Virus record (IMG/VR): IMGVR_UViG_3300043442_000189
Strand: one strand, 5' to 3'
From: a virus
DNA length: 23,610 nt
Shown: piece after piece, positions 89 through 21,401 of the stretch
How positions within the stretch are numbered: position 1 is the stretch's first letter
Layout: the number at the start of each line of letters is the position of its first letter
The notes under the pieces: generated by a model
Told to the model about the DNA's origin: nothing
Database searches by the model: none
What the model saw: the letters and a program-made list of their open reading frames with translations, nothing else
Made by a program: the position numbers and the translations under genes

Positions 89-541
89 TTACAGTTTTAT
101 AAAGTTATATAGCGAGTACCATTGCGGTGTCAACTGACCATCTGCAATATATGTAGCACTTGTAACAACACCCGTAGCTACACCATTTGCTGGTTTAATT
201 GTTTCTGAATATATAACACTACCGTCTACTTGAGAACCTGCTCCCGGTTCGACTAGTACATCATCAACACTCATTGACATTATAGTAATCTTTGTACCAG
301 ACTGAGCTGATGAAACTGCTGGTAGGTATACGGTTACAGCACCGGGACCTATTGTTGTAACATTAGAAATAATGAACACGTTCTCTAAAGCAGTTAACTG
401 TTCCCATGAAATAAAATAATCAGTAACACCTTCTGCAAACGGATCTAGTATTACCACTTTCGGAACACTAGGGTTAGGTGGCGTAGGCGCGGGAGGAGGT
501 TGTACTTTACCAGATGCTATTAAAAACGGATTGTTCGCCAT
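89..541 (-). CDS. Putative virion structural / tail-fibre-associated protein
   Basis: 150 aa, Pro-rich N-terminus then a beta-rich segment (VTVYLPAVSSAQSGTKITI) resembling tail-fibre small domains; on the divergent arm. Confidence 0.6.
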   Translation of the reverse strand: MANNPFLIASGKVQPPPAPTPPNPSVPKVVILDPFAEGVTDYFISWEQLTALENVFIISNVTTIGPGAVTVYLPAVSSAQSGTKITIMSMSVDDVLVEPGAGSQVDGSVIYSETIKPANGVATGVVTSATYIADGQLTPQWYSLYNFIKL

Positions 542-554
542 ATACTATAATATA

Positions 555-562
555 CAAAAGTA
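555..562 (-). promoter_or_regulatory. Bacteroidota-type -7 promoter box (TACTTTTG) for the minus-strand arm
   Basis: Matches TAnnTTTG 13 nt upstream of the ATG at 541; no TTTG at canonical -33 spacing. Confidence 0.45.
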
Positions 563-899
563 CAACTGATTATTCAAATATAAAAGGTTTTTTCGGGTAC
601 ACTAGATAACGTCTGATATATCATTCAAAGAATACTCCCTATAGGGTATAATGTCCGTTATATCATACAAAACTATACCCTTATGGGTACTATAAGAAAC
701 ATTATCCCCCGGGTACTTCTGGTAGTTAGCGTACCCCCGTATGTAACGGCGGACGAATTACTGTACGGGAGGGGGTGTGATACGGCTGTGAAAAGTATAT
801 GTGGAAGGGGGTGTGAAGGGGGGTTACTGCAACCGACCCCGGCGCGTGTCGAGTTAGGGGGTACCCCCCGTGAAAAACCCTAATGATCTTAATAACACT

Positions 900-1127
900 A
901 TGCAACAAGAACCAAAATGCCAGTGCTGCAAAAGCACAATGTCTGTAGGTTTCGTGGAAACCTACATTCCCTGCTACGACGACGGCGGATCAATCGATTC
1001 ATTCGACGTTGACGTCGAACGCGTCGAAATCTGTACTAATCCTGACTGCGATTACAGTATTAATACCGCGGAACGCAGCGGCATCCGCGCAACGCACTGC
1101 GATTGCGACGATGATCTCCCTTTCTAG
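900..1127 (+). CDS. Small Cys-rich (Zn-ribbon-like) protein with C-terminal DDDLPF
   Basis: ATG 15 nt after motif; CQCC...CTNPDC; ends CDDDLPF. Confidence 0.8.
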   Translation: MQQEPKCQCCKSTMSVGFVETYIPCYDDGGSIDSFDVDVERVEICTNPDCDYSINTAERSGIRATHCDCDDDLPF

Positions 1128-1186
1128 GGAGGTCATCACCCCTTCGGGGTGAACAGGAAAAACCCTAATTGATAAAATACACACAT

Positions 1187-1375
1187 ATGGAAAAAATGTT
1201 GAAATGCACCTGCGGGTGCACAGAATGGACCACAACTGTGGTGCCGTTCCTAACGGGATACTGTCCCGAAACTGTTGATGTCGACTATGCAGACATAGAC
1301 GTCTGCGCTTCTTGTGGTAAAGAAGCGTATCTGGTCAGCTGTGTAGATGATGAAGATGATGATCTCCCCTTTTAG
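1187..1375 (+). CDS. Small Cys-rich (Zn-ribbon-like) protein with C-terminal DDDLPF, likely paralogue of 900..1127
   Basis: ATG 17 nt after motif; CTCGC...CASC; ends EDDDLPF. Confidence 0.8.
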   Translation: MEKMLKCTCGCTEWTTTVVPFLTGYCPETVDVDYADIDVCASCGKEAYLVSCVDDEDDDLPF

Positions 1376-1430
1376 GGGGGTTCATTATCATCAATGTGAA
1401 AAACCCTATTAAATATAATACATAACACAT

Positions 1431-1649
1431 ATGAAAAAATTAGCAATTGAAATCGCATCGTTTATAGGATGCATTGTCACTCTTCACTGGTTGGGAGTAA
1501 TCGTTTTTAGTCTTGTGACTCCGTTTAGAATTACTCAAATGACTGGGTCATTTGTCTACTCGTTTGTTAGTATATTCTTTTGCGTGCTTATCACGCTTGG
1601 AATATTTGCTGACTTGAGTGACAAGAAATACTTTGATCGCTTCGAGTGA
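1431..1649 (+). CDS. Small membrane protein (two predicted TM helices)
   Basis: Two hydrophobic stretches; ATG 20 nt after motif. Confidence 0.8.
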   Translation: MKKLAIEIASFIGCIVTLHWLGVIVFSLVTPFRITQMTGSFVYSFVSIFFCVLITLGIFADLSDKKYFDRFE

Positions 1650-1672
1650 TCACTTGTGTGTAGTGTGGTGAG

Positions 1673-1699
1673 AGGGGACTTCGGTCCCCTTTTATTTTA
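1673..1699 (+). terminator. Intrinsic terminator
   Basis: AGGGGAC-TTCG-GTCCCCT followed by a T-rich tail. Confidence 0.8.
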
Positions 1700-1736
1700 C
1701 TACTATAAAAACCCTAATAAAACCAATCTCTACACT

Positions 1737-1895
1737 ATGGAACACAAATTTGAATTTGAAACATTTGATCTTGGTGAGATCCCTAAGATGCAAGCGAAAC
1801 TGAATCAGTGGATAACTATCGGGAAACTAATTGATCATAAGATCATTGTGTTATCCGAAAGAAAACTGCTGGTTCAATACAGAGTGCACAAATAG
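1737..1895 (+). CDS. Hypothetical protein (52 aa, MEHKFEFETF...)
   Basis: ATG 18 nt after motif; the longer GTG-start call crosses the terminator and motif. Confidence 0.75.
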   Translation: MEHKFEFETFDLGEIPKMQAKLNQWITIGKLIDHKIIVLSERKLLVQYRVHK

Positions 1896-1945
1896 TGCAC
1901 TTTGTTTTCTTTTCTAAAAACCCTAATAACGGCAATCTATATACT

Positions 1946-2101
1946 ATGAAAGATAAAATCACAATCACAGAAGATTACGCTATTAGCGTAAACCGCGATG
2001 TCCAAGACATCATAAAAGAGAAGATCAATGAGGGATACTTCATTGTAAACAGTTACTCACATCCTGCGGTGGGAATGTGTTACGTAATGATCCCTGCATA
2101 G
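1946..2101 (+). CDS. Hypothetical protein (51 aa, MKDKITITED...)
   Basis: ATG 18 nt after motif. Confidence 0.75.
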   Translation: MKDKITITEDYAISVNRDVQDIIKEKINEGYFIVNSYSHPAVGMCYVMIPA

Positions 2102-2145
2102 CGGGGATACATTACAAAAAACCCTAATGATTTTAACACATACAT

Positions 2146-2295
2146 ATGAACGAAGTTCAAGATGCTCGTAAAGAGTTAATGGACACCATCATCAAAATGA
2201 TGAAGAGTGCCGAAGAGAAACAAATTCCACTCGCAGAGATGCGTGAAATGTTCGAAGAAATTCGAAAAGTGTGGGACCAAAAGATACCCCTATAA
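2146..2295 (+). CDS. Hypothetical helical protein (49 aa, MNEVQDARKELMDTIIKMMKSAEEKQIPLAEMREMFEEIRKVWDQKIPL), absent from the ORF track
   Basis: ATG 17 nt after motif at 2117; TAA at 2293-2295 inside a hairpin, as in neighbouring units. Confidence 0.75.
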   Translation: MNEVQDARKELMDTIIKMMKSAEEKQIPLAEMREMFEEIRKVWDQKIPL

Positions 2296-2340
2296 GGGGT
2301 GTCTTTTCTTTTGTCAAACCCTAATAATACCAATACATAT

Positions 2341-2535
2341 ATGCAAGAAAATCATTTATCACCCGCAGAGCGTGCGGATGTACTTCGCAACATCAATATG
2401 AAGATGATGTTGCTATTCGGTAAACAAATCACCGAAGAGATGTACAACGAGTTTCACGAAATGTCCGACAGCGGACTATTCGGCGTGTCACTCTCGTACT
2501 CGATGATGTTGATGCAAAAGAGAAGAGAGTGTTAA
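2341..2535 (+). CDS. Hypothetical protein (64 aa, Met-rich)
   Basis: ATG 15 nt after motif. Confidence 0.75.
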   Translation: MQENHLSPAERADVLRNINMKMMLLFGKQITEEMYNEFHEMSDSGLFGVSLSYSMMLMQKRREC

Positions 2536-2586
2536 CGCACTCTTTTCTTTCCACTTGTAAAAACCCTAATGAAACAAACACACATT

Positions 2587-2799
2587 ATGGAATATTTAAA
2601 AGCAAGACACGACACATTACAGCGGTCGTTAGTTCGTATCGTCAAGACAATTGAGAGAAAAATTGAGTATCTCGAAAAAGGGAAACCTGTTTCAGAGTTT
2701 GCCGACAGAAACGAAATGTTAACGAAACTCAAACAAGACATTGTTCATTACCGTGGTGTATTACACGGTGTAGAATGCTGTCAAAAATTGTTTTATTAA
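2587..2799 (+). CDS. Hypothetical coiled-coil protein (70 aa)
   Basis: ATG 16 nt after motif (alternative in-frame ATG at 2569 lies inside the motif). Confidence 0.75.
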   Translation: MEYLKARHDTLQRSLVRIVKTIERKIEYLEKGKPVSEFADRNEMLTKLKQDIVHYRGVLHGVECCQKLFY

Positions 2800-2820
2800 A
2801 ACCCCTTCGGGGGTTTTATT
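2797..2820 (+). terminator. Intrinsic terminator-like hairpin
   Basis: TAAAACCCC-TTCG-GGGGTTTTA. Confidence 0.7.
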
Positions 2821-2859
2821 CACACTAATTAAAAACCCTAATGATTCTAATTATACACT

Positions 2860-3165
2860 ATGGAAAACAACCAACCCATTCTTTCCTGCGCGGGAAGGGA
2901 CGCAGTGTCAATTGACTCTGCTTTATTGCAACAGTTGTTGCAATCATTTAGACCAAACCTCATCGGTGTTCAACATCGGGCAATGCAAATTAATAGCATA
3001 ATGTTCGATATTACTAATGGTGAGTTTGGTGATAAATCCTTGAAAATATTCAAGGATACTATAACAGAAGAGTTTCTGTTTATCCAATTAATGGAAGCGT
3101 CTCGTCTTGCGAGAACGGTTTCTGCGGAATCGTTGTGTGACGCTGATGAACCGGATAACCATTAA
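2860..3165 (+). CDS. Hypothetical protein (101 aa)
   Basis: ATG 17 nt after motif. Confidence 0.75.
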   Translation: MENNQPILSCAGRDAVSIDSALLQQLLQSFRPNLIGVQHRAMQINSIMFDITNGEFGDKSLKIFKDTITEEFLFIQLMEASRLARTVSAESLCDADEPDNH

Positions 3166-3184
3166 CTCCGACAAATTGAAAACG

Positions 3185-3220
3185 GCACCTTGTGGAAACA
3201 CAGGGTGCTTTTTTTCTTTT
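3185..3220 (+). terminator. Intrinsic terminator
   Basis: GCACCTTGTG-GAAA-CACAGGGTGC plus T tract. Confidence 0.85.
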
Positions 3221-3344
3221 AAAGTGCGATTTGTCCATCGGTGAAACACCCGTAAAATAAGGAAAAACCGTTTTTCAGTGCGGTGATAACACCGTCCTCG
3301 TGCTACTACTCGGAAAAACCCTAATGAACTTAATTCTATACACT

Positions 3345-3617
3345 ATGAATAATATCATAAACGAGATGATTGCTACGGGAGTAGCGACGCTCACAGAGAA
3401 AATCGCGTTCTACGAGAAAACAATTAAGGAATCTGAAACAGGATTAATTAAGAAAGTACTCGGCGAACCTACGGACAACTATACGATTGAATCACACCTA
3501 AAAGGTTTGGTGACAATGCGTGGTATGGTTGTAGAATTGCACCGTGCTCTTGCGGAACTGCAACCGAAATCCGTAAAGAGTCTAAAGCGCGCAAAGCGTG
3601 GAAGACCTCGCAAATAG
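3345..3617 (+). CDS. Coiled-coil protein with C-terminal AT-hook-like KRGRPRK
   Basis: ATG 19 nt after motif; ends RAKRGRPRK. Confidence 0.75.
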   Translation: MNNIINEMIATGVATLTEKIAFYEKTIKESETGLIKKVLGEPTDNYTIESHLKGLVTMRGMVVELHRALAELQPKSVKSLKRAKRGRPRK

Positions 3618-3622
3618 TGTGT

Positions 3623-3643
3623 AGCACCCTGTAACGGGGTGCT
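3623..3643 (+). terminator. Hairpin between array units (no strong U tract)
   Basis: AGCACCCTG-TAA-CGGGGTGCT. Confidence 0.5.
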
Positions 3644-3678
3644 CACTCTACCTCAATTAAAAACCCTAATTACTTGCT

Positions 3679-4152
3679 ATGTTTAAATTAAAGTTCAAAA
3701 ACGAGCGTGTTGTGCGGGATGCACAGGGCGTTCAAAGTAAGCGTTACTACTACAAGGTAACGGGTATGTCACCTGAACAAGTCGAACAGTATCGTCTTGA
3801 TTTGGGTACCGACGACGAAGGAAAAGATTGGGCTGTCATTGAAGACGGTGTTCCAATTTATCGCAGTGAAAAGCGTTTGGGTGAGATTGCTGTTATCAAA
3901 CGCAGTATGAATCCAAACAAGACCACCAATCGTCACTCGTGGTACGCAAAGTGCAATCGCGAAATCTTAACAGATTTGTTAAGCGAGAACAGTGCTATTG
4001 GTTCCACGGGATTTGCGCAATTTGCGTATCAGGACTTTTTGGAACAATCCAAAGTCTTAATGCGTGAGATGATTGCAAAGGGTACTGTTGGTGAGTCGGA
4101 GACGGAGTCCGAGAAGGAAACCGAGAGTGAGAAGAGTGTGGACGATTTGTAA
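3679..4152 (+). CDS. Hypothetical phage protein with acidic tail (ends VDDL); likely paralogue of 4484..4972
   Basis: 157 aa; motif 8 nt upstream; YYxV-x3-[S/T]xE pattern shared with 4484..4972. Confidence 0.85.
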   Translation: MFKLKFKNERVVRDAQGVQSKRYYYKVTGMSPEQVEQYRLDLGTDDEGKDWAVIEDGVPIYRSEKRLGEIAVIKRSMNPNKTTNRHSWYAKCNREILTDLLSENSAIGSTGFAQFAYQDFLEQSKVLMREMIAKGTVGESETESEKETESEKSVDDL

Positions 4153-4187
4153 AAGTGAGAGCGCCCCTTCGGGGGTGCTCACTTTTA
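4150..4187 (+). terminator. Intrinsic terminator
   Basis: GAGCGCCCC-TTCG-GGGGTGCTC extended by TAAAAGTG/CACTTTTA. Confidence 0.8.
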
Positions 4188-4483
4188 AAATCTAAAACTG
4201 ATTCTATGTGTTATGTTTTTAAATAGTCCGACCCTAATGGTTTGTGTGGTGTGACGAGCATACCGACTATAAGAGAGTTGTAAGGTTGCAGTGTTGGAAT
4301 AGTACTACTCTGATAGTTAGTTAGTTAGCAAGCTAGCGTTGCGGGTTGGTTGGTTGTGGTGCTCGTTTTTTGTGTGGTGTGTTTTGTTTGGAAATAGTTT
4401 TCCCTAATAGACTGCTTGTGCGTGTCTAGACGATACTGTACAAGTAAAGTAAACTAATAATTAACAATTTAAAAACTACTGAA

Positions 4484-4972
4484 ATGAAAGCAGTACAGAT
4501 TAAAGGTCAAGAAATGTACCGTAAGAAAGGTACAGGTAACGTAGTATGGAAGTACTATGTAGTAGATGCAACCGCAGAAGAGTTGGATGCACTAAAAGCG
4601 ATTAAGGGTGACTACTATCGCGAAACTTCCGAACCCGTTATGTATAACGGAAAGTTAATTACGTGTCCTCTATTGTTCGAAAACAATTGGGAAGGTGACG
4701 TCATTGACTACAATGTCACCGCTAACAACCGTCTTGTAATAGATAAGTTGGCAATGTTGAAAGCAGAAAGCATTATGAAGAGTGTCGGTGACGATACTTT
4801 GAAGGTTGCGATCGCTAACAAGATTGCAAACGAGTCTATCGGCGACTTGTTTCAGCGTAGAAGTAGTACCAGTGTAGGTGGTGCAATAGGTAAAACCGAG
4901 ACTAAAACAGAAGGTTCTGCGACAGAAAACGTAGAAACTCCTGAACCAGCCGACAATGTTGACGACTTGTAA
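4484..4972 (+). CDS. Hypothetical phage protein with acidic tail (ends VDDL)
   Basis: 162 aa, A-rich leader, similar architecture to 3679..4152. Confidence 0.85.
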   Translation: MKAVQIKGQEMYRKKGTGNVVWKYYVVDATAEELDALKAIKGDYYRETSEPVMYNGKLITCPLLFENNWEGDVIDYNVTANNRLVIDKLAMLKAESIMKSVGDDTLKVAIANKIANESIGDLFQRRSSTSVGGAIGKTETKTEGSATENVETPEPADNVDDL

Positions 4973-4982
4973 CTGATTGACA

Positions 4983-6430
4983 GTGAGAGTGTTGCAGTGT
5001 GTGAGAGTGCCCAACACCTTGGGTATTCTCCACATTGTGACAACCCACTAGAAACACACACAAGTACAACGGTTTAGAGTATAGCATTAATTAACTAATT
5101 ATACTACTCTCTTATGGTTACCTACTACCTCATACACACAGTTACTCGTAAAGTGTTATTTGAGACTCATTGTTCTACTCTTCTCTCTGCTTATATAGAA
5201 CAGAAGGTAGAGATGCATATGATTCCCCGCGTTTCTGTAATCATCGACGACTCAACTGATTGATTACCAACATATTAGTCCCAGCAGAGTGTTTTTAATT
5301 AAACATAGTGTATAGTTTCGGTTTCTATACTCTGTTGGGACTATCTTTTTTGAATTCCCGTAAACCCTCACAACGGTGAGATAATTAACCTAAATAATAA
5401 CATAGGTATGGTTTGTATCAAATTCTACGGGAATTCATTCATATTGCTATATACTTGTAGCAAGAAAGTAAGTAATTGTAGTGTACACGCAGCCTGATAA
5501 ATAGACACAATGCTGTTGAATAATCGGTAAAACTGGTGTAAGATGAAATAGGTTATGTACATAAGTGCACATTGTGTACTGTAAAACACGCAGTTCCTAT
5601 CACTACAATTGCTTTCTTTACTCTCATCCTAGATTAACTAACCCGGTAAAACTTGCACTGATATGCAGGTAATCCTATACTAGGTAGGTTCTTGATTCCA
5701 CGGTAGTGACTTCCGTGTAATAAATTAAGACTGTCATATGAAATCTATCTTTTTTTTAATTTCACTCTATAACTTTGGTCGGTTATAGGGTAAAAAAATC
5801 AGAAATTGCTGCAATTTGTAACCGAAAGGTTACTGGGCTAAACAGAACTTGACCAACAGTAGGATAATATACTGTTAGTTTTGTGATGCCTATTGCAGCC
5901 AGTTGAATAGAACTGTAAAATCTATTGGTGTTTAAACTGTTCACCAACCACAGTCAATCATACATTAGAGATTATCCTCTTTTATATGGTGTTAATTTCT
6001 CTTTGCACTAACCGAAAGGTGAACAGTTGTAACCTTCGACTACACAGAAAGCAAGTTTAAAGAACCAGTACTCAATCTGGGACAAGCTGATGCAGGTAAG
6101 ATTTGGTTACAACTGAGTGCAATGGGATTATTTAATGCACCATTCTCACGTGGATATAAAGACTTCCTACCACCATAACAATCTAACTCCACAGCTGAGT
6201 GGAAATGGTTATATAAGTGTAAGATGTGAAACCACAATGATTAATTGACTATTGTTATATCTGGATAATCCTTTATTGGTAAAGATATAATATTGCGAGT
6301 CACCGTGTTAATCATTCTCCCAAGGGTGAGCAGTTGTAATGGTTACATGTTAAGATGGGAGACCAAACGGTTATGCTTAACATGGGATAACTTATTAGAC
6401 TATTACAACTGAGTGCAGAGGGGATAATAG
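4983..6430 (+). ncRNA. Putative structured non-coding RNA region (one long RNA or several)
   Basis: No credible ORF; series of closed stems, e.g. 5276-5290/5329-5343, 5351-5362/5426-5437, 5470-5483/5601-5614, 5808-5815/5892-5899, 6024-6034/6105-6115, 6331-6344/6398-6411; G-U pairs favour the + strand. Confidence 0.6.
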
Positions 6431-6497
6431 AATAAACTATTCAAATTCAGAGATCAACTATACTGAGAGTTAGTTGTAAAACTTAAATACCAAAACA

Positions 6498-6845
6498 ATG
6501 GTTAAAGCAACAAACAACAAAGGGTTTTCATTAACCTTCGAGAACGGATTTACTATATCTGTTCAGTTCGGTTACGGTAATTACTGTGACAATGGTCGTC
6601 ATCCTGACGGATTTGAATTCTCTAAAAAGCAAGAGGTAACAGAGTCTTCTAATGCAGAGATTGCAATATGGGATGCTGATGGACAGTGGTATGTATTCTA
6701 TAACGGTGATACCGTAATGGGATATTGTTCCGCAAATGATATTGCTGAATGGATTGACAAGGTAAGCAAACTTCCCGCTGATTATATCAGTATGAAGAAC
6801 GATGCTGATTTAAACGCTTTAGAGTCACAATCTTATGAAGGATAG
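6498..6845 (+). CDS. Hypothetical phage protein
   Basis: 115 aa; GFSLTFENGFTISVQFGYGNYC pattern looks like a phage-type small protein; A-rich leader. Confidence 0.85.
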   Translation: MVKATNNKGFSLTFENGFTISVQFGYGNYCDNGRHPDGFEFSKKQEVTESSNAEIAIWDADGQWYVFYNGDTVMGYCSANDIAEWIDKVSKLPADYISMKNDADLNALESQSYEG

Positions 6846-7050
6846 TGCTCCCGTTTATTGGCAAATGCGTAATGGTGAATTGATATCCGTAGATGATATG
6901 GATGTCAATCACCTTCGCAATGTTCTCAAAATGATTATCCGTAACTCTAAAACTACTCGTAAGAAGGATGCATTTCTGCAGAACTTCATAGAAGAAGAGA
7001 TTAATGAAATCGAAAGACAACAAGAAGAAGAGTCAGACTATCCATACTAA
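6835..7050 (+). CDS. Hypothetical phage protein
   Basis: 71 aa, overlaps upstream stop; WQMRNGELISVDDMDVNHLRN. Confidence 0.8.
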   Translation: MKDSAPVYWQMRNGELISVDDMDVNHLRNVLKMIIRNSKTTRKKDAFLQNFIEEEINEIERQQEEESDYPY

Positions 7051-7080
7051 AATGCGGGGGAACAATCCCCTGCATTTATT
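7050..7080 (+). terminator. Terminator hairpin
   Basis: AAATGCGGGGGA-ACAA-TCCCCTGCATTT. Confidence 0.7.
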
Positions 7081-7106
7081 ATTATTAACCTAATACCATA
7101 TTAAAA

Positions 7107-7199
7107 ATGGAAGAAAAAGAGTTTAAACAAGGATTATTAGCGGGAGTGCTAATAATGAGTACCGTTTTATTGTATGTTTTACTATTAATACTATTATAA
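7107..7199 (+). CDS. 30-aa single-TM peptide (MEEKEFKQGLLAGVLIMSTVLLYVLLLILL), absent from ORF track
   Basis: Fills the gap between the terminator and 7202; preceded by AACCTAAT, a motif-like variant. Confidence 0.55.
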   Translation: MEEKEFKQGLLAGVLIMSTVLLYVLLLILL

Positions 7200-7201
7200 G
7201 A

Positions 7202-7525
7202 ATGGAAGATTTAGATTTTGGTTCTCTGTATGAGAACTTTGAGAAAGAACAGTCGTATCTTTCTGCGGAAAAGGAACAAGTTCCGGTTTGTTACAACTAC
7301 TACTCTAAAGTGGTTAAGTTTAACTACACAGGGGATAATCTACCCGTGTTTTTGTTTGTGTATGATTTTGATGAAAACAAAGACGAGTTATATGCTACAG
7401 TTATTAAATCACATTGTCCCGAGTATTATCCAGGTGAGAAAGTTACTCTAATTCCACAGTTTACTGCGATTATAGAGAACTTTGACATTATTGAGCATAA
7501 GAAAGAGACCGAAATCCTATTTTAG
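7202..7525 (+). CDS. Hypothetical protein
   Basis: 107 aa, tiles with neighbours. Confidence 0.75.
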   Translation: MEDLDFGSLYENFEKEQSYLSAEKEQVPVCYNYYSKVVKFNYTGDNLPVFLFVYDFDENKDELYATVIKSHCPEYYPGEKVTLIPQFTAIIENFDIIEHKKETEILF

Positions 7526-7526
7526 T

Positions 7527-8402
7527 ATGAGTTCAAGACAGATATTAAACGGTCTCGAAAGTCTGCAAAGACATAGAGAGTTCTTTACATTCTCTCCCGA
7601 AAGACAGCGTATGGAATACTACCTAAATAAAAATTGGTATAATACTAACTATGTGTACTTGTACTCTGATGATGACAAGGTATGTTTAGCCAATGAAATA
7701 CGTAGAGTTAGAATTGGTACCACAGGTAAAGCATGGGCACAGAGTGATAAAGACAGAAGGGGTCTTACCTATGACAAGAAAACTAAAAAGGTTAAGTTAT
7801 GGTATAACTCTAACATGTATAGTTTCAGTCAGCATGAAATGAACTCTTTATTTGATCATATGGAAGTGAGTTGGTTCAAAGATACATACGATGTACTCAC
7901 TGGATTAGTTACACCTACTATGCTTGGTAAAGTATTTAGTGGTAAGATTACTGATGAACTCGGATTTTGTAAAGAGTTTATCAAATCTAAACCTTGGTTA
8001 AAGAACAGTGATGTTACACCTGAAAAGTTAGAAAGTTTGTTAGCACATATGCGCACAAATAATATGGTTAGATTAGGCGCTTTCATACAGTCTTTCTCCG
8101 TTGCTAAATCAGGTAGAGATCTTTGTGATCAGATTATCAATGGTAACTCAAATAAGTACCATCTGATATATCAAGTAATTGCACAAGCACTTGCCCTGAA
8201 TGAGAAGATAGACTTCTCTAAAGATGTAGAAGAGATTATGAAGTTAGAAGAACAGTTTAACAAGATGATGATGCGACTCAAGTTAGAGACTAATCCTAAT
8301 GTAGCATTGGTTAAAAATGGTGATAGACTAGATGAGGTTCATAATCATCCCTCATATGCACGTCAAGAACCATTGCTTGATTTAGTAATGCAAGACTTAT
8401 AG
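7527..8402 (+). CDS. Hypothetical phage protein (291 aa)
   Basis: Long ORF; ATG at 7527 one base after the upstream stop. Confidence 0.85.
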   Translation: MSSRQILNGLESLQRHREFFTFSPERQRMEYYLNKNWYNTNYVYLYSDDDKVCLANEIRRVRIGTTGKAWAQSDKDRRGLTYDKKTKKVKLWYNSNMYSFSQHEMNSLFDHMEVSWFKDTYDVLTGLVTPTMLGKVFSGKITDELGFCKEFIKSKPWLKNSDVTPEKLESLLAHMRTNNMVRLGAFIQSFSVAKSGRDLCDQIINGNSNKYHLIYQVIAQALALNEKIDFSKDVEEIMKLEEQFNKMMMRLKLETNPNVALVKNGDRLDEVHNHPSYARQEPLLDLVMQDL

Positions 8403-8669: not shown

Positions 8670-9677
8670 TTATAGTACTTTACCGTCTATGATTAATTTA
8701 TTATCTACTGAAAATGTACCATCTGGTTTTACATCTACTGTAGCAAAACCGTGTACCCATTCTGTATGGGTGTTCATATATTCCGCGTCTAGTTCACATA
8801 GGCATCCTGTTGACCAAGAACCGTGTACTGTACCATCTATATCTTTAGTAAGATGCTCTGACTTTCTATGGAAGTGTCCGCATATTACAGATGATTTAGT
8901 TTTTAGGTACATGTTACGTGCTGGGTTTACAGTTCCTCCGCCTTTGTACTCGTGACCGTGAATGATATTGAGGTTGCCTGCTTTTATAGTTGTAAACTTT
9001 TCAACTAGATGGACTCTATTTTCACCAAACTTCAAGAGAATAGGTATCTCAAACTCGTCTGTTCCTATCCATTCAGGTGCTTTAAGTTTTAACCAGCGCT
9101 CAAGGCGCATCTCATGGTTACCTATCTTATAGTATATCAGTGCGTTAGGAAATACTTGTCTCATTGCAGAGATAAACCATCTACCTTGTTCTAATTCTTC
9201 ACGCATCTTAGGTTTACTCGGATCTTTATCAAATGATGATAGACCATAGAAGTCTAGGATGTCACCGTTGAGAATGATTGTGTCGGGTTTATATTCTTTG
9301 AGATAATCTATTGCTGCTACTAGAGCTTCTTCATCGTGGTAAGGAAAGTGTATATCGGATAATACTCCTATACGTTGTGATCCCTTACCTAGTGTGAGTA
9401 CAGTCGCTTTCTCTTTGTAGGATTTTGGTATATTATCAAAGGGATTGTAGTTGTATGTAGGTTCTCTTAGTAGATCTTTGTCAGCAACAATTTCTCTATT
9501 AGGTTTTCCTCGTAGACCAGCGTAGTATCTTATCATATCTCTTACATCTTCTACAGATTTAAAGTAGTCAGGTTTCTCGGAGTAGATAAGTTTTGCAAGG
9601 GTAAGAATGGGAGTTGTTTTGTACTTTGAAAGGTAAGATTTTACAACCTCACCTTTCTTTGTTGATTTGCTAGCCAT
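8670..9677 (-). CDS. Calcineurin-like metallophosphoesterase
   Basis: Motifs SDIH, GDILD, GNHE, HGHE and GHFH in order. Confidence 0.9.
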   Translation of the reverse strand: MASKSTKKGEVVKSYLSKYKTTPILTLAKLIYSEKPDYFKSVEDVRDMIRYYAGLRGKPNREIVADKDLLREPTYNYNPFDNIPKSYKEKATVLTLGKGSQRIGVLSDIHFPYHDEEALVAAIDYLKEYKPDTIILNGDILDFYGLSSFDKDPSKPKMREELEQGRWFISAMRQVFPNALIYYKIGNHEMRLERWLKLKAPEWIGTDEFEIPILLKFGENRVHLVEKFTTIKAGNLNIIHGHEYKGGGTVNPARNMYLKTKSSVICGHFHRKSEHLTKDIDGTVHGSWSTGCLCELDAEYMNTHTEWVHGFATVDVKPDGTFSVDNKLIIDGKVL

Positions 9678-13552: not shown

Positions 13553-13824
13553 GTAACTTACCTAGTGGTGCAGAAAATGATTCACGGGCACCGTGGAATG
13601 AATACGATAATCTATGTAGATACTGTGATTCTGATGTACTATATGACTTCTTTATGGAAGAAGTAGCAAAGGACTTAGGAGTTCAAATGATGGAATTTGA
13701 TTCAGAAGAAGACTATCTGGAGTTCTTACATGAGCAAGCAGAATTTAATTTATCTGAACAACCTTTATGTAAACAATGCGCTAAAGAAGAATACTATGAT
13801 GACGATGATGACCGCGACCTATGA
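13549..13824 (+). CDS. Acidic hypothetical protein with CxxC pairs
   Basis: NLPSGAENDSRAPWNE N-terminus; CRYC and CKQC; poly-Asp tail. Confidence 0.75.
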   Translation: MSNLPSGAENDSRAPWNEYDNLCRYCDSDVLYDFFMEEVAKDLGVQMMEFDSEEDYLEFLHEQAEFNLSEQPLCKQCAKEEYYDDDDDRDL

Positions 13825-14089
13825 TACTGACGTATTAGAAGAAACTGAAGTTGTTACTACGTCAGAGGAAGAGAGTAAGATTATTCTATATAATGATCAT
13901 GTAAACTCTTTTGAACATGTGATTATGTGCTTAGTAGCATTCTGTGATCATGGGTTTACCCAAGCAGAACAGTGTGCATTTATAGTACATAACAAAGGCA
14001 AATGTGCAGTAAAACACGGTAGTAAAGAAGATATGCTAGAGCGTGCAAAAAAATTATCTGAAGAACATTTGACTGTAGAAGTAATCTGA
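13805..14089 (+). CDS. clpS: ATP-dependent Clp protease adaptor ClpS
   Basis: IILYNDHVNSFEHVI...QAEQCAFIVHNKGKCAVKHG matches the ClpS core; exact start uncertain (ATGs at 13796-13808). Confidence 0.85.
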   Translation: MMTATYDTDVLEETEVVTTSEEESKIILYNDHVNSFEHVIMCLVAFCDHGFTQAEQCAFIVHNKGKCAVKHGSKEDMLERAKKLSEEHLTVEVI

Positions 14090-15439: not shown

Positions 15440-15524
15440 AGTCAGGTGGCGGAATGGTAGACGCACAATGATGGTAGTAATGCCAGTTGTTAAAGACTTA
15501 CAGGTTCGAATCCTGTTCTGACTT
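15440..15524 (+). tRNA. tRNA-like gene (Leu/Tyr/Ser-type D arm) with non-canonical anticodon arm; identity unassignable
   Basis: Acceptor AGTCAGG/TCTGACT, D arm GGCGGAATGGTAGACGC, T arm ACAGG-TTCGAAT-CCTGT; no 5-bp stem/7-nt anticodon loop; no encoded CCA. Confidence 0.75.
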
Positions 15525-15538
15525 CAAATAATTATCTT

Positions 15539-16435
15539 ATGAATGGTTTAGTAAAAGAAGTTACCAGACGGCAACTTAAGATTACTGAATCCGGGAGAAG
15601 CACTGATTTCATTGCTCCTAGTTTTGGTCACGGATGTCTATTCAACTGCAGTTATTGCTACATGAAGAGACATAGACCTACCGGATTACAGATTGCAAAA
15701 AATGTAGATGATGTATTAGATGCTGTAGGTAAGCATTATGAATGGTTATTAAACACAACCATGTGGTGGACGGAGAATAAACCTAATCAAACACATGACA
15801 CTAGAGTTACTTATGACATAGGTACTAATGAAGATCTTGCTTTACATGCTAAGTATTATGACTTACAGAAGATATTTGATTATCCAAAAGGTAAGGCTAT
15901 GCTGTTCTCATTTGCTACTAAGTATGTAAACTATGACTTAAAACATTTAAACGTACATCTTAGTAGAACCCGTATTAGATTTAGTTTGATGCCTCAGAAG
16001 TATGCGGACATACTAGAACCTAATACTAGTCCTATAGAAGAAAGGATATCTGCTATTAATGATTTTATAAAGTATGGTTATGATGTACACATTAACTTTA
16101 GTCCTGTTATAATTACTGATACTTGGATAGAGGATTACCGGGATTTGTTTATGCTTGTAGATAAGATTGTATTTCCTTTGTATAAAAGAGAACGTGCTAT
16201 AAAATCAGAAGTTATCTTTCTCACACATAATGAGAAGAAGCATGAGTATAATCTTGCTAACGGAATACCCGGGGAAGATCTACTATGGAGACCTGACATA
16301 CAAGAGAACAAGATCTCTAGTAATGGTCAGTTAAATATAAGGTACAACCATAAACTAAAAGCTGATTACATATATCAGTTTAAGTGTTTACATGAGTTGA
16401 TGCTACCTTGGAACACAATACGTTATATATTTTAA
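15539..16435 (+). CDS. splB: Spore photoproduct lyase-family radical SAM protein
   Basis: GCLFNCSYCY CxxxCxxC motif; FATK, RIRFSL, ERIxAIN, GYDVHINFSPVI and EVIFLTHN segments typical of the SPL family. Confidence 0.85.
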   Translation: MNGLVKEVTRRQLKITESGRSTDFIAPSFGHGCLFNCSYCYMKRHRPTGLQIAKNVDDVLDAVGKHYEWLLNTTMWWTENKPNQTHDTRVTYDIGTNEDLALHAKYYDLQKIFDYPKGKAMLFSFATKYVNYDLKHLNVHLSRTRIRFSLMPQKYADILEPNTSPIEERISAINDFIKYGYDVHINFSPVIITDTWIEDYRDLFMLVDKIVFPLYKRERAIKSEVIFLTHNEKKHEYNLANGIPGEDLLWRPDIQENKISSNGQLNIRYNHKLKADYIYQFKCLHELMLPWNTIRYIF

Positions 16436-19997: not shown

Positions 19998-20702
19998 ATG
20001 CTACAAAACGTAAACCTCCAAGAGGTAAAAGAAAAATTGTATGTTAAACTAAAAGAATCAGGATGGTCTGAGTACATTAAAACATTCGTTCTGAGTTCTG
20101 AGATGGATACAATATTAGAGACACTTCTGAGTGATGCTATGGACAATAAAAGGTTTACTCCAAAAGTAAAAGATTTGTTTAAAGCATTCGAGATGTGTCC
20201 GTTTGATGCTGTAAATGTGGTAATTATAGGACAAGATCCTTATCCACAAGAAGGTGTAGCGGATGGTATTGCGTTCTCCTGTGGTTACACAGGTAGACCG
20301 GAAGCATCGCTTCGTTATATCTTTGATTCTATTAAGAGTACAACCGGCATAGATTCATCTGATGCTGATTTATCTAGATGGAGTAAACAAGGAATACTGC
20401 TTATAAATACTGCATTTACTACTACTATTGGTAAACCAGGTTCTCACCAGTTATTGTGGAAACCTTTTACTGTTGCTGTATTAGATGCTTTAGTATGGAA
20501 TAAACCCAACCTTGTATATGTATTTCTAGGTAAACAAGCTCAAACGTATGCTGATTTGGTACCCAGTAACAACTACAAGTATTTCACAAGTCACCCTGCA
20601 AGTGCTGCTTACATGAAGCAATCTAAGTGGGATTGTAATGACATATGGAATAAGATAAACAAGTCTTTAGAAGAACAGAATAAACCAAAAATCGAATGGT
20701 AG
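19998..20702 (+). CDS. ung: Uracil-DNA glycosylase (family 1)
   Basis: VVIIGQDPYP, ADGIAFS, LLINTAFT and SHPAS motifs. Confidence 0.95.
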   Translation: MLQNVNLQEVKEKLYVKLKESGWSEYIKTFVLSSEMDTILETLLSDAMDNKRFTPKVKDLFKAFEMCPFDAVNVVIIGQDPYPQEGVADGIAFSCGYTGRPEASLRYIFDSIKSTTGIDSSDADLSRWSKQGILLINTAFTTTIGKPGSHQLLWKPFTVAVLDALVWNKPNLVYVFLGKQAQTYADLVPSNNYKYFTSHPASAAYMKQSKWDCNDIWNKINKSLEEQNKPKIEW

Positions 20703-21070
20703 AAAAAGTAACAGTGACTATATGGACAGAACTTACCAAATATGGTGAGGTAGAATTCTCTGTAAAAAGTCATAAAGGATTATTCAAAAGAAAATGCTTA
20801 CACGATGCTTTATCTGAAGCAGATATTAAGATGACAGGTATAGATGATATGATTAAATCATTTACCAAAAAGCTTAAACATGTAGAACACTTTGCAGTTA
20901 ATTCACAAGATACAAGATTATATGACGAAATTAGAGAAACAGAAGAGAGAACTCGACAAAGCGTTGTTGATATTGAATCAACAGTTGAACACAGCGTTCA
21001 TGACGTTCCAGTCAAACATACAAAAAGCAGTAAATCTCGTACAAAACGGAGAGAAGCTGTCTTATCATGA
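20696..21070 (+). CDS. Hypothetical protein
   Basis: Overlaps the ung stop; 3' part overlaps the next gene by about 150 nt. Confidence 0.55.
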   Translation: MVEKVTVTIWTELTKYGEVEFSVKSHKGLFKRKCLHDALSEADIKMTGIDDMIKSFTKKLKHVEHFAVNSQDTRLYDEIRETEERTRQSVVDIESTVEHSVHDVPVKHTKSSKSRTKRREAVLS

Positions 21071-21401
21071 TGTTTTCAATAACTTTAAATTGACTCTTTC
21101 TGAACTTGTAGAGGTTGCTGTTCAAATAGAACCGCAGTGTCTTATAGTACGAAAGAACTCAAGACAAAGACAGTACGTCGTACCACGTCAGATGATCTGC
21201 TATTTTGCATCACAGATGGGTTATAGTGAAGAAGCTATTGCAAAAGAGATTATGAGAGACCGCTGTACAGTTGGTTACTCGAAGCAAATTGTAATAGACG
21301 CATTGACTTACAATAACTTAGAGTACAGACGTGTGTACAAGGAGTTTATAAAGCACATGAAGAAGTATCCTAATGGTGATTATTTAGATCATCTTGATTA
21401 A
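20922..21401 (+). CDS. Protein with DnaA C-terminal-like helix-turn-helix
   Basis: RQRQYVVPRQMICYFA...GYSEEAIAKEIMRDRCTVGYS resembles DnaA domain IV (RQxxMYL...IG...RDHTTV). Confidence 0.7.
   Translation: MTKLEKQKRELDKALLILNQQLNTAFMTFQSNIQKAVNLVQNGEKLSYHDVFNNFKLTLSELVEVAVQIEPQCLIVRKNSRQRQYVVPRQMICYFASQMGYSEEAIAKEIMRDRCTVGYSKQIVIDALTYNNLEYRRVYKEFIKHMKKYPNGDYLDHLD

Follow-up and report, generated by a model that had tools for sequence, protein, structure and literature searches.

The principle of carrying small phage genes as cassettes is already known from the promoter-early stem-loop (PeSL) elements of T4-type phages (Arbiol et al. 2010, PMC2839356; Comeau et al. 2014, PMC4122927) and from phage P23-45 (Chaban et al. 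2024, PMC10770324). The stretch described here, IMG/VR virus record IMGVR_UViG_3300043442_000189 (23,610 nt, hereafter the window), comes from a crAss-like phage and carries an array of 11 units, C1 to C11, each built as motif, leader, open reading frame (ORF) and hairpin, with nine exact copies of a 12-nt motif, AAAAACCCTAAT, and two variants of it. The array is real and functional-looking, and what is added here to the known systems is the existence of near-sister genomes with two- or three-base differences in the motif, an exchange of cargo that leaves the motif lineage-specific, and first genes that resemble the tail of SSB (single-stranded DNA-binding protein).

In the PeSL cassettes, as in the array, a hairpin and a conserved start signal lie between small orphan genes of an early variable region, and ORFs are inserted, deleted, replaced and displaced at the elements, with variable crossover points and no dedicated recombinase. 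The PeSL start signal is a host sigma-70 -35/-10 (or MotA) promoter followed by a Shine-Dalgarno sequence, whereas the array has a single 12-mer unlike the host boxes and lacks a Shine-Dalgarno sequence; PeSL elements are also spread over several regions, in contrast to the one compact array found here, whose motif differs between close lineages. P23-45 carries a strongly conserved, AT-rich motif at about 14 places near its left, first-transcribed end, where 14 starts were mapped and assigned to an injected, single-chain, two-barrel virion RNA polymerase (RNAP), together with terminators (PMC10770324). Both motifs are confined to one strand of the first-transcribed region, a term that rests here on analogy with phage phi14:2. 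P23-45 differs in being a siphophage whose virion polymerase forms a fusion with the tape-measure protein and which has another, non-virion polymerase; its starts were mapped, whereas the array is described from sequence, and the cassette shuffling and lineage-specific motif change seen here do not figure in the accessible account of P23-45.

Phage phi14:2 (Drobysheva et al.; bioRxiv 10.1101/2020.03.07.982082) shares the phage group with the window and the polymerase type with its relatives; its replication arm is early and opens with non-coding stretches that are strongly transcribed, for which the window has a counterpart. It differs in its start regions, as taken up below. Its replication arm constitutes the early class and is transcribed by the injected virion polymerase gp66. 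The start-associated sequences (SAS) of cluster K mycobacteriophages (Pope et al. 2011, PMC3203893) are likewise short asymmetric repeats, in one orientation, upstream of small non-essential genes. However, the SAS, GGGATAGGAGCCC, lies immediately upstream of starts, genome-wide, with a proposed translational role, whereas the array motif is A/C-rich, lies 8–20 nt from the ATG, occurs in one array only and heads ORF-less units too. No early promoter or motif array described for crAss-like phages was found in the literature covered, which included few subscription papers.

The Motif and the Architecture of the Array

Exact copies of the motif begin at 873, 1158, 1707, 1916, 2117, 2559, 2831, 3314 and 3659, all on the + strand. 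The preliminary description had listed 11 copies, and 11 units do lie at those places, but two copies are imperfect: the one at 1399 is a one-mismatch variant, AAAAACCCTATT, and the one given as 2316 keeps just AAACCCTAAT, the full 12-mer there being TCAAACCCTAAT at 2314 (10/12 match). The full motif had not been seen elsewhere in the window; a scan at ≤1 mismatch returned ten matches in the array and one outside it (19950, minus strand), with a chance level in shuffles of 0.35 on average and 3 at most. What had been missed are two CCCTAAT copies without an adjacent ORF, at 4232 and 4402, which raise the total to 13 units and are also kept in the relatives L020 and L029. All 12 window copies of CCCTAAT are on the + strand, within 878–4408. 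Pattern scans of viral contigs for motif plus leader yielded 19 and 7 stretches, with an array only in the contig of L020. CCCTAA resembles telomere and telo-box repeats, a similarity that was dismissed as chance.

The distances from motif to ATG for C1 to C11 are 15, 17, 20, 18, 18, 17, 15, 16, 17, 19 and 8 nt, exactly as previously reported. The leaders are G-poor (9 G per 180 nt) and nearly without structure. Their ending had been given as ACAC(A/T)ATG-like in most units; ACAC(T/AT)ATG was found in 6/11 and near variants in another 4/11, with C11 deviating. The motif contains neither a Shine-Dalgarno-like purine run nor a GGAG-type run, and outside the array a GGAG-like word precedes 3/23 starts. 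TAnnTTTG is the -7 promoter box of Bacteroidota, and the array motif is distinct from it, as had been noted; the box was found 0 times on the + strand within 600–4500, and sigma-70-type sites are at chance level (18 observed vs 21.5 expected). As an internal contrast to the array, two host-type TAnnTTTG boxes stand at 555..582 (- strand), ahead of the divergent minus-strand late gene 89–541.

The claim that a stem-loop follows every ORF was borne out in all 11 units, with z values from -2.2 to -7.5 (200 shuffles each) and stems of 9–14 bp. Ten of the 11 motifs are preceded by the hairpin of the previous unit, and the first by a GGGGGTACCCCCC site. In C1, C2 and C4–C7 the hairpin overlaps the ORF end, and its loop contains or adjoins the stop codon (1110–1137, 1351–1393, 1879–1905, 2084–2115, 2279–2307 and 2519–2550); the 5' arm of these six hairpins is coding, and in C1 and C2 it encodes the DDLPF tail and doubles as crossover homology. 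The cassette ORFs are genes, since the ratio of non-synonymous to synonymous differences (pN/pS) was 0.32–0.69 in 10 comparisons covering 9/11 ORFs (C6 and C8 lack a diverged orthologue).

Lineage-Specific Motifs at the Same Locus

Fourteen longer relatives were found via the capsid (83–92% identity). The motif of the window forms no array in these 14 records (2 exact matches in total), whereas in the close relative G001 (43.8 kb) 8/8 of its matches lie inside the array. The early arm was read in 11 relatives (G003, G004, G005, G007, G008, G010, G013, G014, G015, G016 and G017), giving five full arrays, two partial ones and four without a clear one. The five full arrays occupy the same locus, each with its own motif: AAAGTCCTTAAT in G003 (complete genome; 13/13 exact copies in one cluster, on one strand), AAACTCCTTACT in G017 (complete genome; 9/9 exact copies in one cluster), TAACACCTTAAT in G016 (6/6 exact 11-mers in one cluster), TATAACCTATTA in G008 (6 copies) and TACAGCTT followed by ACT in G014 (12 sites). 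In the partial arrays, G010 has six copies of ATATTTACTT, mostly ORF-less, and G013 three copies of GCTAACCCTT. A motif scan of relatives, which had been proposed as a check, returned copies confined to one cluster in G003, G016 and G017, and the motifs of G016 and G017 were absent from the 4 other records in which each was sought. The five versions resemble variants that drifted from a single 12-mer, with a spacing to the ATG of 15–31 nt in these lineages and 8–31 nt overall. Close relatives can differ: G016 and G001 have 96% identical capsids and motifs that differ at 3/12 positions, and G003 and G017, also with 96% identical capsids, differ at 2/12 positions of the motif and have polymerase cores of 54% identity.

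The genes behind these motifs are partly shared. Orthologues of C4, C9, C10 and C11 stand under other motifs, C4 in G003 and G017 and C9 in G003, G008, G016 and G017; in G017 the C10 orthologue is placed before C9, and no cassette gene is common to all arrays. G003 and G017 share an ORF-plus-hairpin block of 382 nt (87% nucleotide identity), and they share a gene (92% amino acid identity) along with its hairpin and spacer, each keeping its own motif on both sides. Similarly, C9 and its hairpin in L029 and G016 (81% amino acid identity) each follow their own motif. A whole motif was spanned by 4/20 blastn blocks between arrays with different motifs vs 14/26 blocks between arrays with the same motif, a contrast that is partly circular and in which relatedness differs. 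Within a lineage all motif copies change together while cargo moves between lineages, and this combination points to a phage-encoded reader.

Two other repeats were set aside. The G014 repeat TAAATCAGAATAG and the G004 repeat AAAACTAAATAA lie 2–7 nt before the ATGs of tightly packed genes elsewhere and are a separate feature; at these loci (L147, G014 104,546–106,109; L127, G004 104,041–104,573) TAAATCAGAATAGA or AAAACTAAATAA precedes each ATG, and in G014 the upstream gene ends in ...FKSE; this is a further type of recurrent gene junction within the replication arm. The 9-mers that cluster in G013 and G015 were dropped, being inside long repeat-protein ORFs. The early arm of G007 (L128/L133) shows an internal duplication of several early genes (e.g., MTRELARIKT... 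and MSK.ILFFYLLTG... occur twice).

Turnover of Units among Relatives Sharing the Motif

The motif of the window is common to four genotypes, namely the window (with the near-identical L030 and L032), L020, L029 and L033, and the earlier likening to PeSLs was upheld by the gain, loss, replacement and reordering of units among relatives, with breakpoints in intergenic modules. The window, L030 and L032 have the order C1–C11, and L020 the order C1, C2, C3, C7, C9, C10, C11. L029 has C1, an ORF-less unit of 115 nt, C3, C7, another allele of C9, a new 125-aa gene, C10 and C11, and L033 has C1, a new 56-aa gene, C3, C5 and C4, after which the sequence ends. Thus C2 is lost from L029, and its place is taken by other sequence in L033, as also in one contig from run X16; C4 and C5 are absent from L020 and L029, with C4 placed after C5 in L033; C6 is found only in the window, L030 and L032; and C8 is absent from L020 and L029.

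Clean breakpoints are provided by L020 and L029, because these are 92–95% identical over long blocks. Repeated copies of the hairpin core CCCTTAATTGGG with its T-tract flank the 125-aa unit of L029, the swap of the C9 allele begins at the ATG and stops before the hairpin, and C2 was lost at the D(D/E)LPF-coding hairpin. L033 and L020 differ by a breakpoint at the motif: the spacer found after C3 in L033 runs in L020, with the join at the motif, into the leader that serves C4 in L033. Further changes come from environmental contigs: a joint 1904→2304 in runs X3 and X5 (two studies), which omits C5 and C6 (the shorter side has 21 letters, and 9 fit either side), a joint 1389→1725 (C3 is skipped in a contig of run X3), a replacement 1171→1359 in run X16 with 218 other letters, and contigs of run X5 in which a different ORF continues from the ATG of C8. 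Among the loose ends listed (19 of 91), 12 of the 13 within 873–4190 fall in junction zones, which make up 30% of the length (binomial p 6e-6); no backward joint, such as would come from PeSL-type mini-circles formed between elements, occurs among the environmental joints listed, which derive from assembled contigs only. In runs X3 and X5 (loose ends 2334, 2817 and 3210), relatives share DNA of C7, C8 and C9 and continue with TAACACC flanks like the G016 motif, which suggests that further motif variants may exist in the same waters.

Breakpoints had been expected at the motif. Some are there, and others are at hairpins (including the DDLPF-coding one), T-tracts and the ATG, so that they scatter over all these parts. 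Tyrosine (PF00589) and serine (PF00239) recombinases were each found in 0/5 related records, 4 of which are ≥90% complete. Integron arrays, too, are rows of single-gene cassettes, differing in content and order from one relative to the next, and the array resembles them in both respects. It differs in having neither a tyrosine recombinase, as judged from the related records, nor an attC-type palindrome as a fixed crossover, and its units appear to carry their own start signal. With its scattered breakpoints and no recombinase found in the five related records, the turnover matches homologous exchange of the PeSL type and not an integron. The motif is not the only exchange point, nor is it a dedicated, attC-like site, as lineages that share cargo DNA each keep their own motif.

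The Candidate Reader of the Motif

Of the three functions proposed in the preliminary description (promoter for a phage RNAP or activator, RNA processing or translation signal, site of exchange), a promoter for a phage RNAP is the best supported, and the motif is probably a phage-specific early promoter read by an injected virion RNAP. The search for such an enzyme, suggested earlier along with one for a recombinase, gave a candidate: a protein of 3,300–4,400 residues with a DFDxD motif, of polymerase type, is encoded in 14/15 and 2/2 related records, including G016, and tblastn with the polymerase core matched 129 phage records, mostly crAss-like, one of them carrying the annotation 'putative RNA polymerase'. 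A search for sigma-70 region 2 had no hit in 5/5 related records. Expression was taken from run X23 (X16 and X20, probably DNA, and X24, RNA by guess, were left out, and neither stretches lacking RNA cover, e.g., 1–1188, nor runs with small word shares were counted as evidence), whose RNA contigs at 1189–1375, 1484–1645, 3694–4150 and 4424–5064 never cross a motif. Three of them begin 16–24 nt after a motif, that at 4424–5064 beginning 16 nt after, and the three in-array contigs each stay inside one unit, for which the single-contig chances are 0.37, 0.45 and 0.04, so that the RNA gives no more than a weak hint.

If this is correct, the virion polymerase would start a short RNA just after each motif on entry, the unstructured, G-poor leader would be translated without a Shine-Dalgarno sequence, and the hairpin would terminate or protect the RNA of the unit. 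During co-infection, ordinary or microhomology recombination between similar intergenic modules would move whole genes with their expression intact, because each unit carries its own start and stop; incoming genes would land behind the resident motif, because only the resident version would be read.

Several observations weigh against a virion-polymerase promoter. The polymerase gene was read in relatives only, as the G001 fragment stops short of it, and the polymerase region gave no match by phmmer in PDB, PHROGs or Pfam, so that its assignment rests on the DFDxD motif and tblastn. In a Mantel test on 7 genomes with hand-aligned motifs, motif distance was related equally to polymerase identity and to capsid identity (both rho -0.41; p 0.054 and 0.052). 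G004, G005, G007 and G015 all encode the polymerase though they have no clear repeated motif, and the arrays of G010 and G013 are only partial. In phi14:2, according to the accessible part of its account, early transcripts have no common upstream motif (bioRxiv 10.1101/2020.03.07.982082), and its first 9 kb, examined as sequence, contain no such array. The RNA data come from a single study of low depth and consist of assembled contigs, in which a start cannot be told from a cut, and contig 4424–5064 reads through a hairpin at 5004–5030. Additionally, only 5/11 hairpins (+ strand) passed a scan for a terminator with hairpin plus T run.

The alternative that survives best, although unlikely, is that the motif is the site of a small phage regulator, activating or repressing the host RNAP, or of a second, non-virion polymerase. 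The concerted, lineage-specific change needs only some phage-encoded reader, motif distance does not single out the polymerase, and C10 ends in a basic KRGRPRK (KRGRPSKKK in the G017 orthologue), which we take to resemble the AT-hook DNA-binding motif. P23-45, moreover, has two polymerases with two motifs (PMC10770324). Nevertheless, the early arm opens with the array, which leaves no evident preceding gene for a reader synthesised after infection; the array lacks a host TAnnTTTG box that an activator could use; and neither sigma region 2 (0/5 records) nor a cassette gene common to all arrays offers a candidate.

It is quite unlikely that one long RNA runs from the genome end and that motif and hairpin form a processing or translation-enhancing signal that releases single-gene mRNAs. 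Processing into single-gene mRNAs has its model in the RNase III sites of T7, and the terminator-like T run missing by scan in 6/11 hairpins, the 9–14 bp stems that often lie over a stop codon, and RNA contigs that cannot separate a start from a cut would all fit, as would the lack of a promoter motif for gp66 in the accessible account of phi14:2 (bioRxiv 10.1101/2020.03.07.982082). However, the spacing to the ATG (8–20 nt here and 15–31 nt in other lineages) is unlike a fixed translation signal, and for this reason and because of the ORF-less copies a promoter is preferred and an SAS-like translational role, raised earlier, is unlikely. The motif has no Shine-Dalgarno-like purine run, and the different 12-mers of phages whose capsids are 96% identical would not be accounted for by a host ribosome or RNase.

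That the motif is mainly a recombination site, integron-like (att) or a homology patch, kept uniform by recombination or gene conversion without a role in transcription, is very improbable. Some breakpoints do fall at the motif (L033 vs L020; the X16 replacement 1171→1359; a 51-nt piece bounded by GGAAAAACC), and gene conversion could homogenise the copies, but breakpoints also scatter over hairpins, T-tracts and the ATG, recombinases were found in 0/5 records, the motif is the very part that differs between lineages, and its strict strand bias and fixed place ahead of G-poor leaders, in an array with no other promoter candidate, speak against it as well. A promoter element of the host RNAP holoenzyme (e.g., with an alternative sigma factor), varying as hosts differ, is the least likely reading: PeSLs use host sigma-70 promoters (PMC4122927), yet the motif does not match TAnnTTTG, sigma-70-type sites are at 18 vs 21.5 expected, the usual host box is present elsewhere in the phage, and the five versions look like drift from one 12-mer.

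With the virion-polymerase promoter retained as the preferred reading, a wider one is put forward tentatively, as somewhat less than an even prospect. The wAAnwCCyTAmT family of 12-mers would be the promoter of the crAss-type virion RNAP, polymerase and promoter would co-diverge into orthogonal pairs (e.g., AAAGTCCTTAAT of G003 vs AAACTCCTTACT of G017), each lineage would own a private, recombinase-free cassette rack with foreign genes behind the resident promoter, and the first slot would usually hold small mimics of the host SSB tail that divert host DNA-repair and replication enzymes at entry.

First Genes and the SSB Tail

The proteins of C1 and C2 end, at the free C-terminus, in DDDLPF, which is the tail of Staphylococcus aureus SSB (PMC5531588). 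In other lineages the opening ORF of the array likewise terminates in acidic-LPF (G010, G014, G016 and G017), or else in PPF (G003) or in another sequence (G008). Acidic-xPF ends were found in 6 of 1,747 ORFs scanned, and 4/6 belong to first or second cassette genes. The Leu, Pro and Phe codons differ among these ends and the G010 end does not form a GGG/CCC hairpin, both of which suggest that selection acts on the peptide. Of 18 Bacteroidota ORFs ending in DDLPF, picked by name from 80 listed loci, 8 were SSB (PF00436), 9 DUF3127 and 1 DnaB; the search pattern itself selected for the tail, so the count shows just that SSBs of this kind exist. Prophage DUF669 proteins have been suggested to mimic the SSB tail (PMC13687109), and proteins of the C1/C2 type could plausibly compete for, or recruit, the partners of host SSB. 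The role of the cassette genes in host takeover or anti-defence that was proposed earlier is a putative one.

Individual Units and Neighbouring Elements

C1 (873..1157, +) consists of the motif (873–884), an ORF at 900–1127 (75 aa, with Cys pairs and the DDDLPF end) and hairpins at 1110–1137 and 1138–1150; its orthologues in L020, L029 and L033 gave pN/pS values of 0.38–0.69. C2 (1158..1398, +; motif 1158–1169) has an ORF at 1187–1375 (62 aa), also with Cys pairs and the DDDLPF end, and a hairpin at 1351–1393. The ORFs had been called mostly unrelated, and no pair among the 11 proteins matches at E 0.01; these shared features of C1 and C2 are the qualification. C3 (1399..1706, +; variant motif 1399–1410) encodes a hydrophobic, predicted membrane protein (ORF 1431–1649, 72 aa; pN/pS 0.53) and carries hairpins at 1634–1652 and 1660–1703. 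C4 (1707..1915, +; motif 1707–1718, ORF 1737–1895, 52 aa) ends in a hairpin with T-tract (1879–1905), C5 (1916..2116, +; motif 1916–1927, ORF 1946–2101, 51 aa) in a hairpin at 2084–2115, and C6 (2117..2313, +; motif 2117–2128, ORF 2146–2295, 49 aa) in a hairpin with T-tract (2279–2307). C7 (2314..2558, +), with the degenerate motif at 2314–2325, has an ORF at 2341–2535 (64 aa; pN/pS 0.39 vs L020) and a hairpin at 2519–2550, and C8 (2559..2830, +; motif 2559–2570) an ORF at 2587–2799 (70 aa) and a hairpin at 2797–2818. C9 (2831..3221, +; motif 2831–2842, ORF 2860–3165, 101 aa, hairpin with T-tract 3184–3209) encodes a member of a widespread family without assigned function (76 protein clusters).

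Non-coding modules lie ahead of C10 (3222..3311, +), comprising a block at 3222–3260, about 90% conserved and thus more so than the surrounding genes, and the 51-nt piece at 3261–3311 bounded by the GGAAAAACC direct repeat; a 61-nt block ahead of C10 is 93% identical to L029 by alignment. A non-coding module of about 45 nt, GTGATAAC..CCGT..TACTACTC, is found ahead of C10 in the window and ahead of C11 in L020 (6160–6205) and L029. C10 (3314..3658, +; motif 3314–3325) has an ORF at 3345–3617 (90 aa; pN/pS 0.46) and a hairpin at 3615–3650. C11 (3659..4190, +; motif 3659–3670) has the 8-nt leader, an ORF at 3679–4152 (157 aa; pN/pS 0.32) and a hairpin at 4151–4186. The twelfth unit (4231..4401, +) consists of a ACCCTAAT core (4231–4238) and an ORF-less, G/T-rich, foldable stretch; ORF-less terminal motif copies likewise occur in G003, G008 and G017. 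The thirteenth unit (4402..5064, +) has CCCTAAT at 4402–4408, a 75-nt leader with a hairpin and an ORF at 4484–4972 (162 aa; pN/pS 0.24).

None of the 11 cassette proteins had a match in PHROGs at E 0.01 or above the cut-off in Pfam and NCBIfam. The C9 profile reached at best E 0.28 in PDB, the Atlas gave no usable match for ORF 4484 and a best value of 0.79 for C9, and ORF 4484 had no match among 50,697 phage records. A paralogy of C11 and ORF 4484 was unsupported (BLASTP E 0.054; hhalign probability 0.2%). An Rfam scan of 500–7600 returned two matches, at chance level.

Downstream, the ORF-poor stretch 5138–6430 has the deepest contigs of run X23 (5894–6065, depth 276; 6157–6426, depth 75) and contains short repeats (6012/6319 and 6107/6403) that are common to many contigs with different flanks, with no Rfam match. 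In this it is reminiscent of the strongly transcribed non-coding parts close to the beginning of the phi14:2 early arm, and it is a candidate for small RNAs.

Genome Context

The array starts where a minus-strand structural arm and a plus-strand replication arm, the latter carrying DnaB, diverge, right after the GGGGGTACCCCCC site (857..869, strand not assigned) that heads the replication arm. This site is kept in L020, L029, L031 and L033, and a GG(G/T)G(G/T)TACCCC-like site heads the early arm in all 11 relatives read. The divergence region 600–872 also contains nested inverted repeats and G-rich runs (770–860) and is possibly a genome end, a packaging site or a site of first initiation. In crAss001 the early genes lie at one end of the linear genome (PMC8375218), and the array genes of the window would be immediate-early, given their position and by analogy with phi14:2.

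The DnaB of the window has its best matches in gut crAss-like phages (about 30% identity), and the close relative G001 carries a crAss-type terminase (phrog_6681) and crAss-type capsid proteins (phrog_11589 and phrog_35737). The best named matches of the clade's capsid are Lbo-JY46 (27%) and Cellulophaga phi17:2/phi4:1, on which grounds the window is placed in a distant branch of the crAss-like phages. PP438436.1, the best named capsid match (27%, full length), has the cyanobacterium Leptolyngbya as recorded host, which is unexpected for a crAss-like capsid. The four runs that contain most of the window are freshwater or aquatic metagenomes, two of which may be its source, and a Bacteroidota host is probable in view of the relatives and of leaders without Shine-Dalgarno sequences. 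Auxiliary genes in the window encode a ClpS adaptor (13730–14089), tRNA-Thr (15440–15525), a spore-photoproduct-lyase-like radical S-adenosylmethionine protein (15539–16435), a uracil-DNA glycosylase (19998–20702) and a protein with the DnaA C-terminal helix-turn-helix (20922–21401). A metallophosphoesterase gene (8670–9677) lies on the minus strand inside the plus-strand arm.

Significance for crAss-like Phages

The findings bear on how the injected RNAP of crAss-like phages finds its starts, a matter in which the sole case studied, phi14:2, showed no motif and for which the present clade gives exact candidate promoters. Two complete genomes, each with its own polymerase and with motifs 2/12 apart, are suited to a clean comparison of cross-specificity. 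If the proposed reading is true, such pairs would be natural orthogonal sets of polymerase and promoter, and from the array one could read off which proteins these phages make first, candidate mimics of the SSB tail among them.

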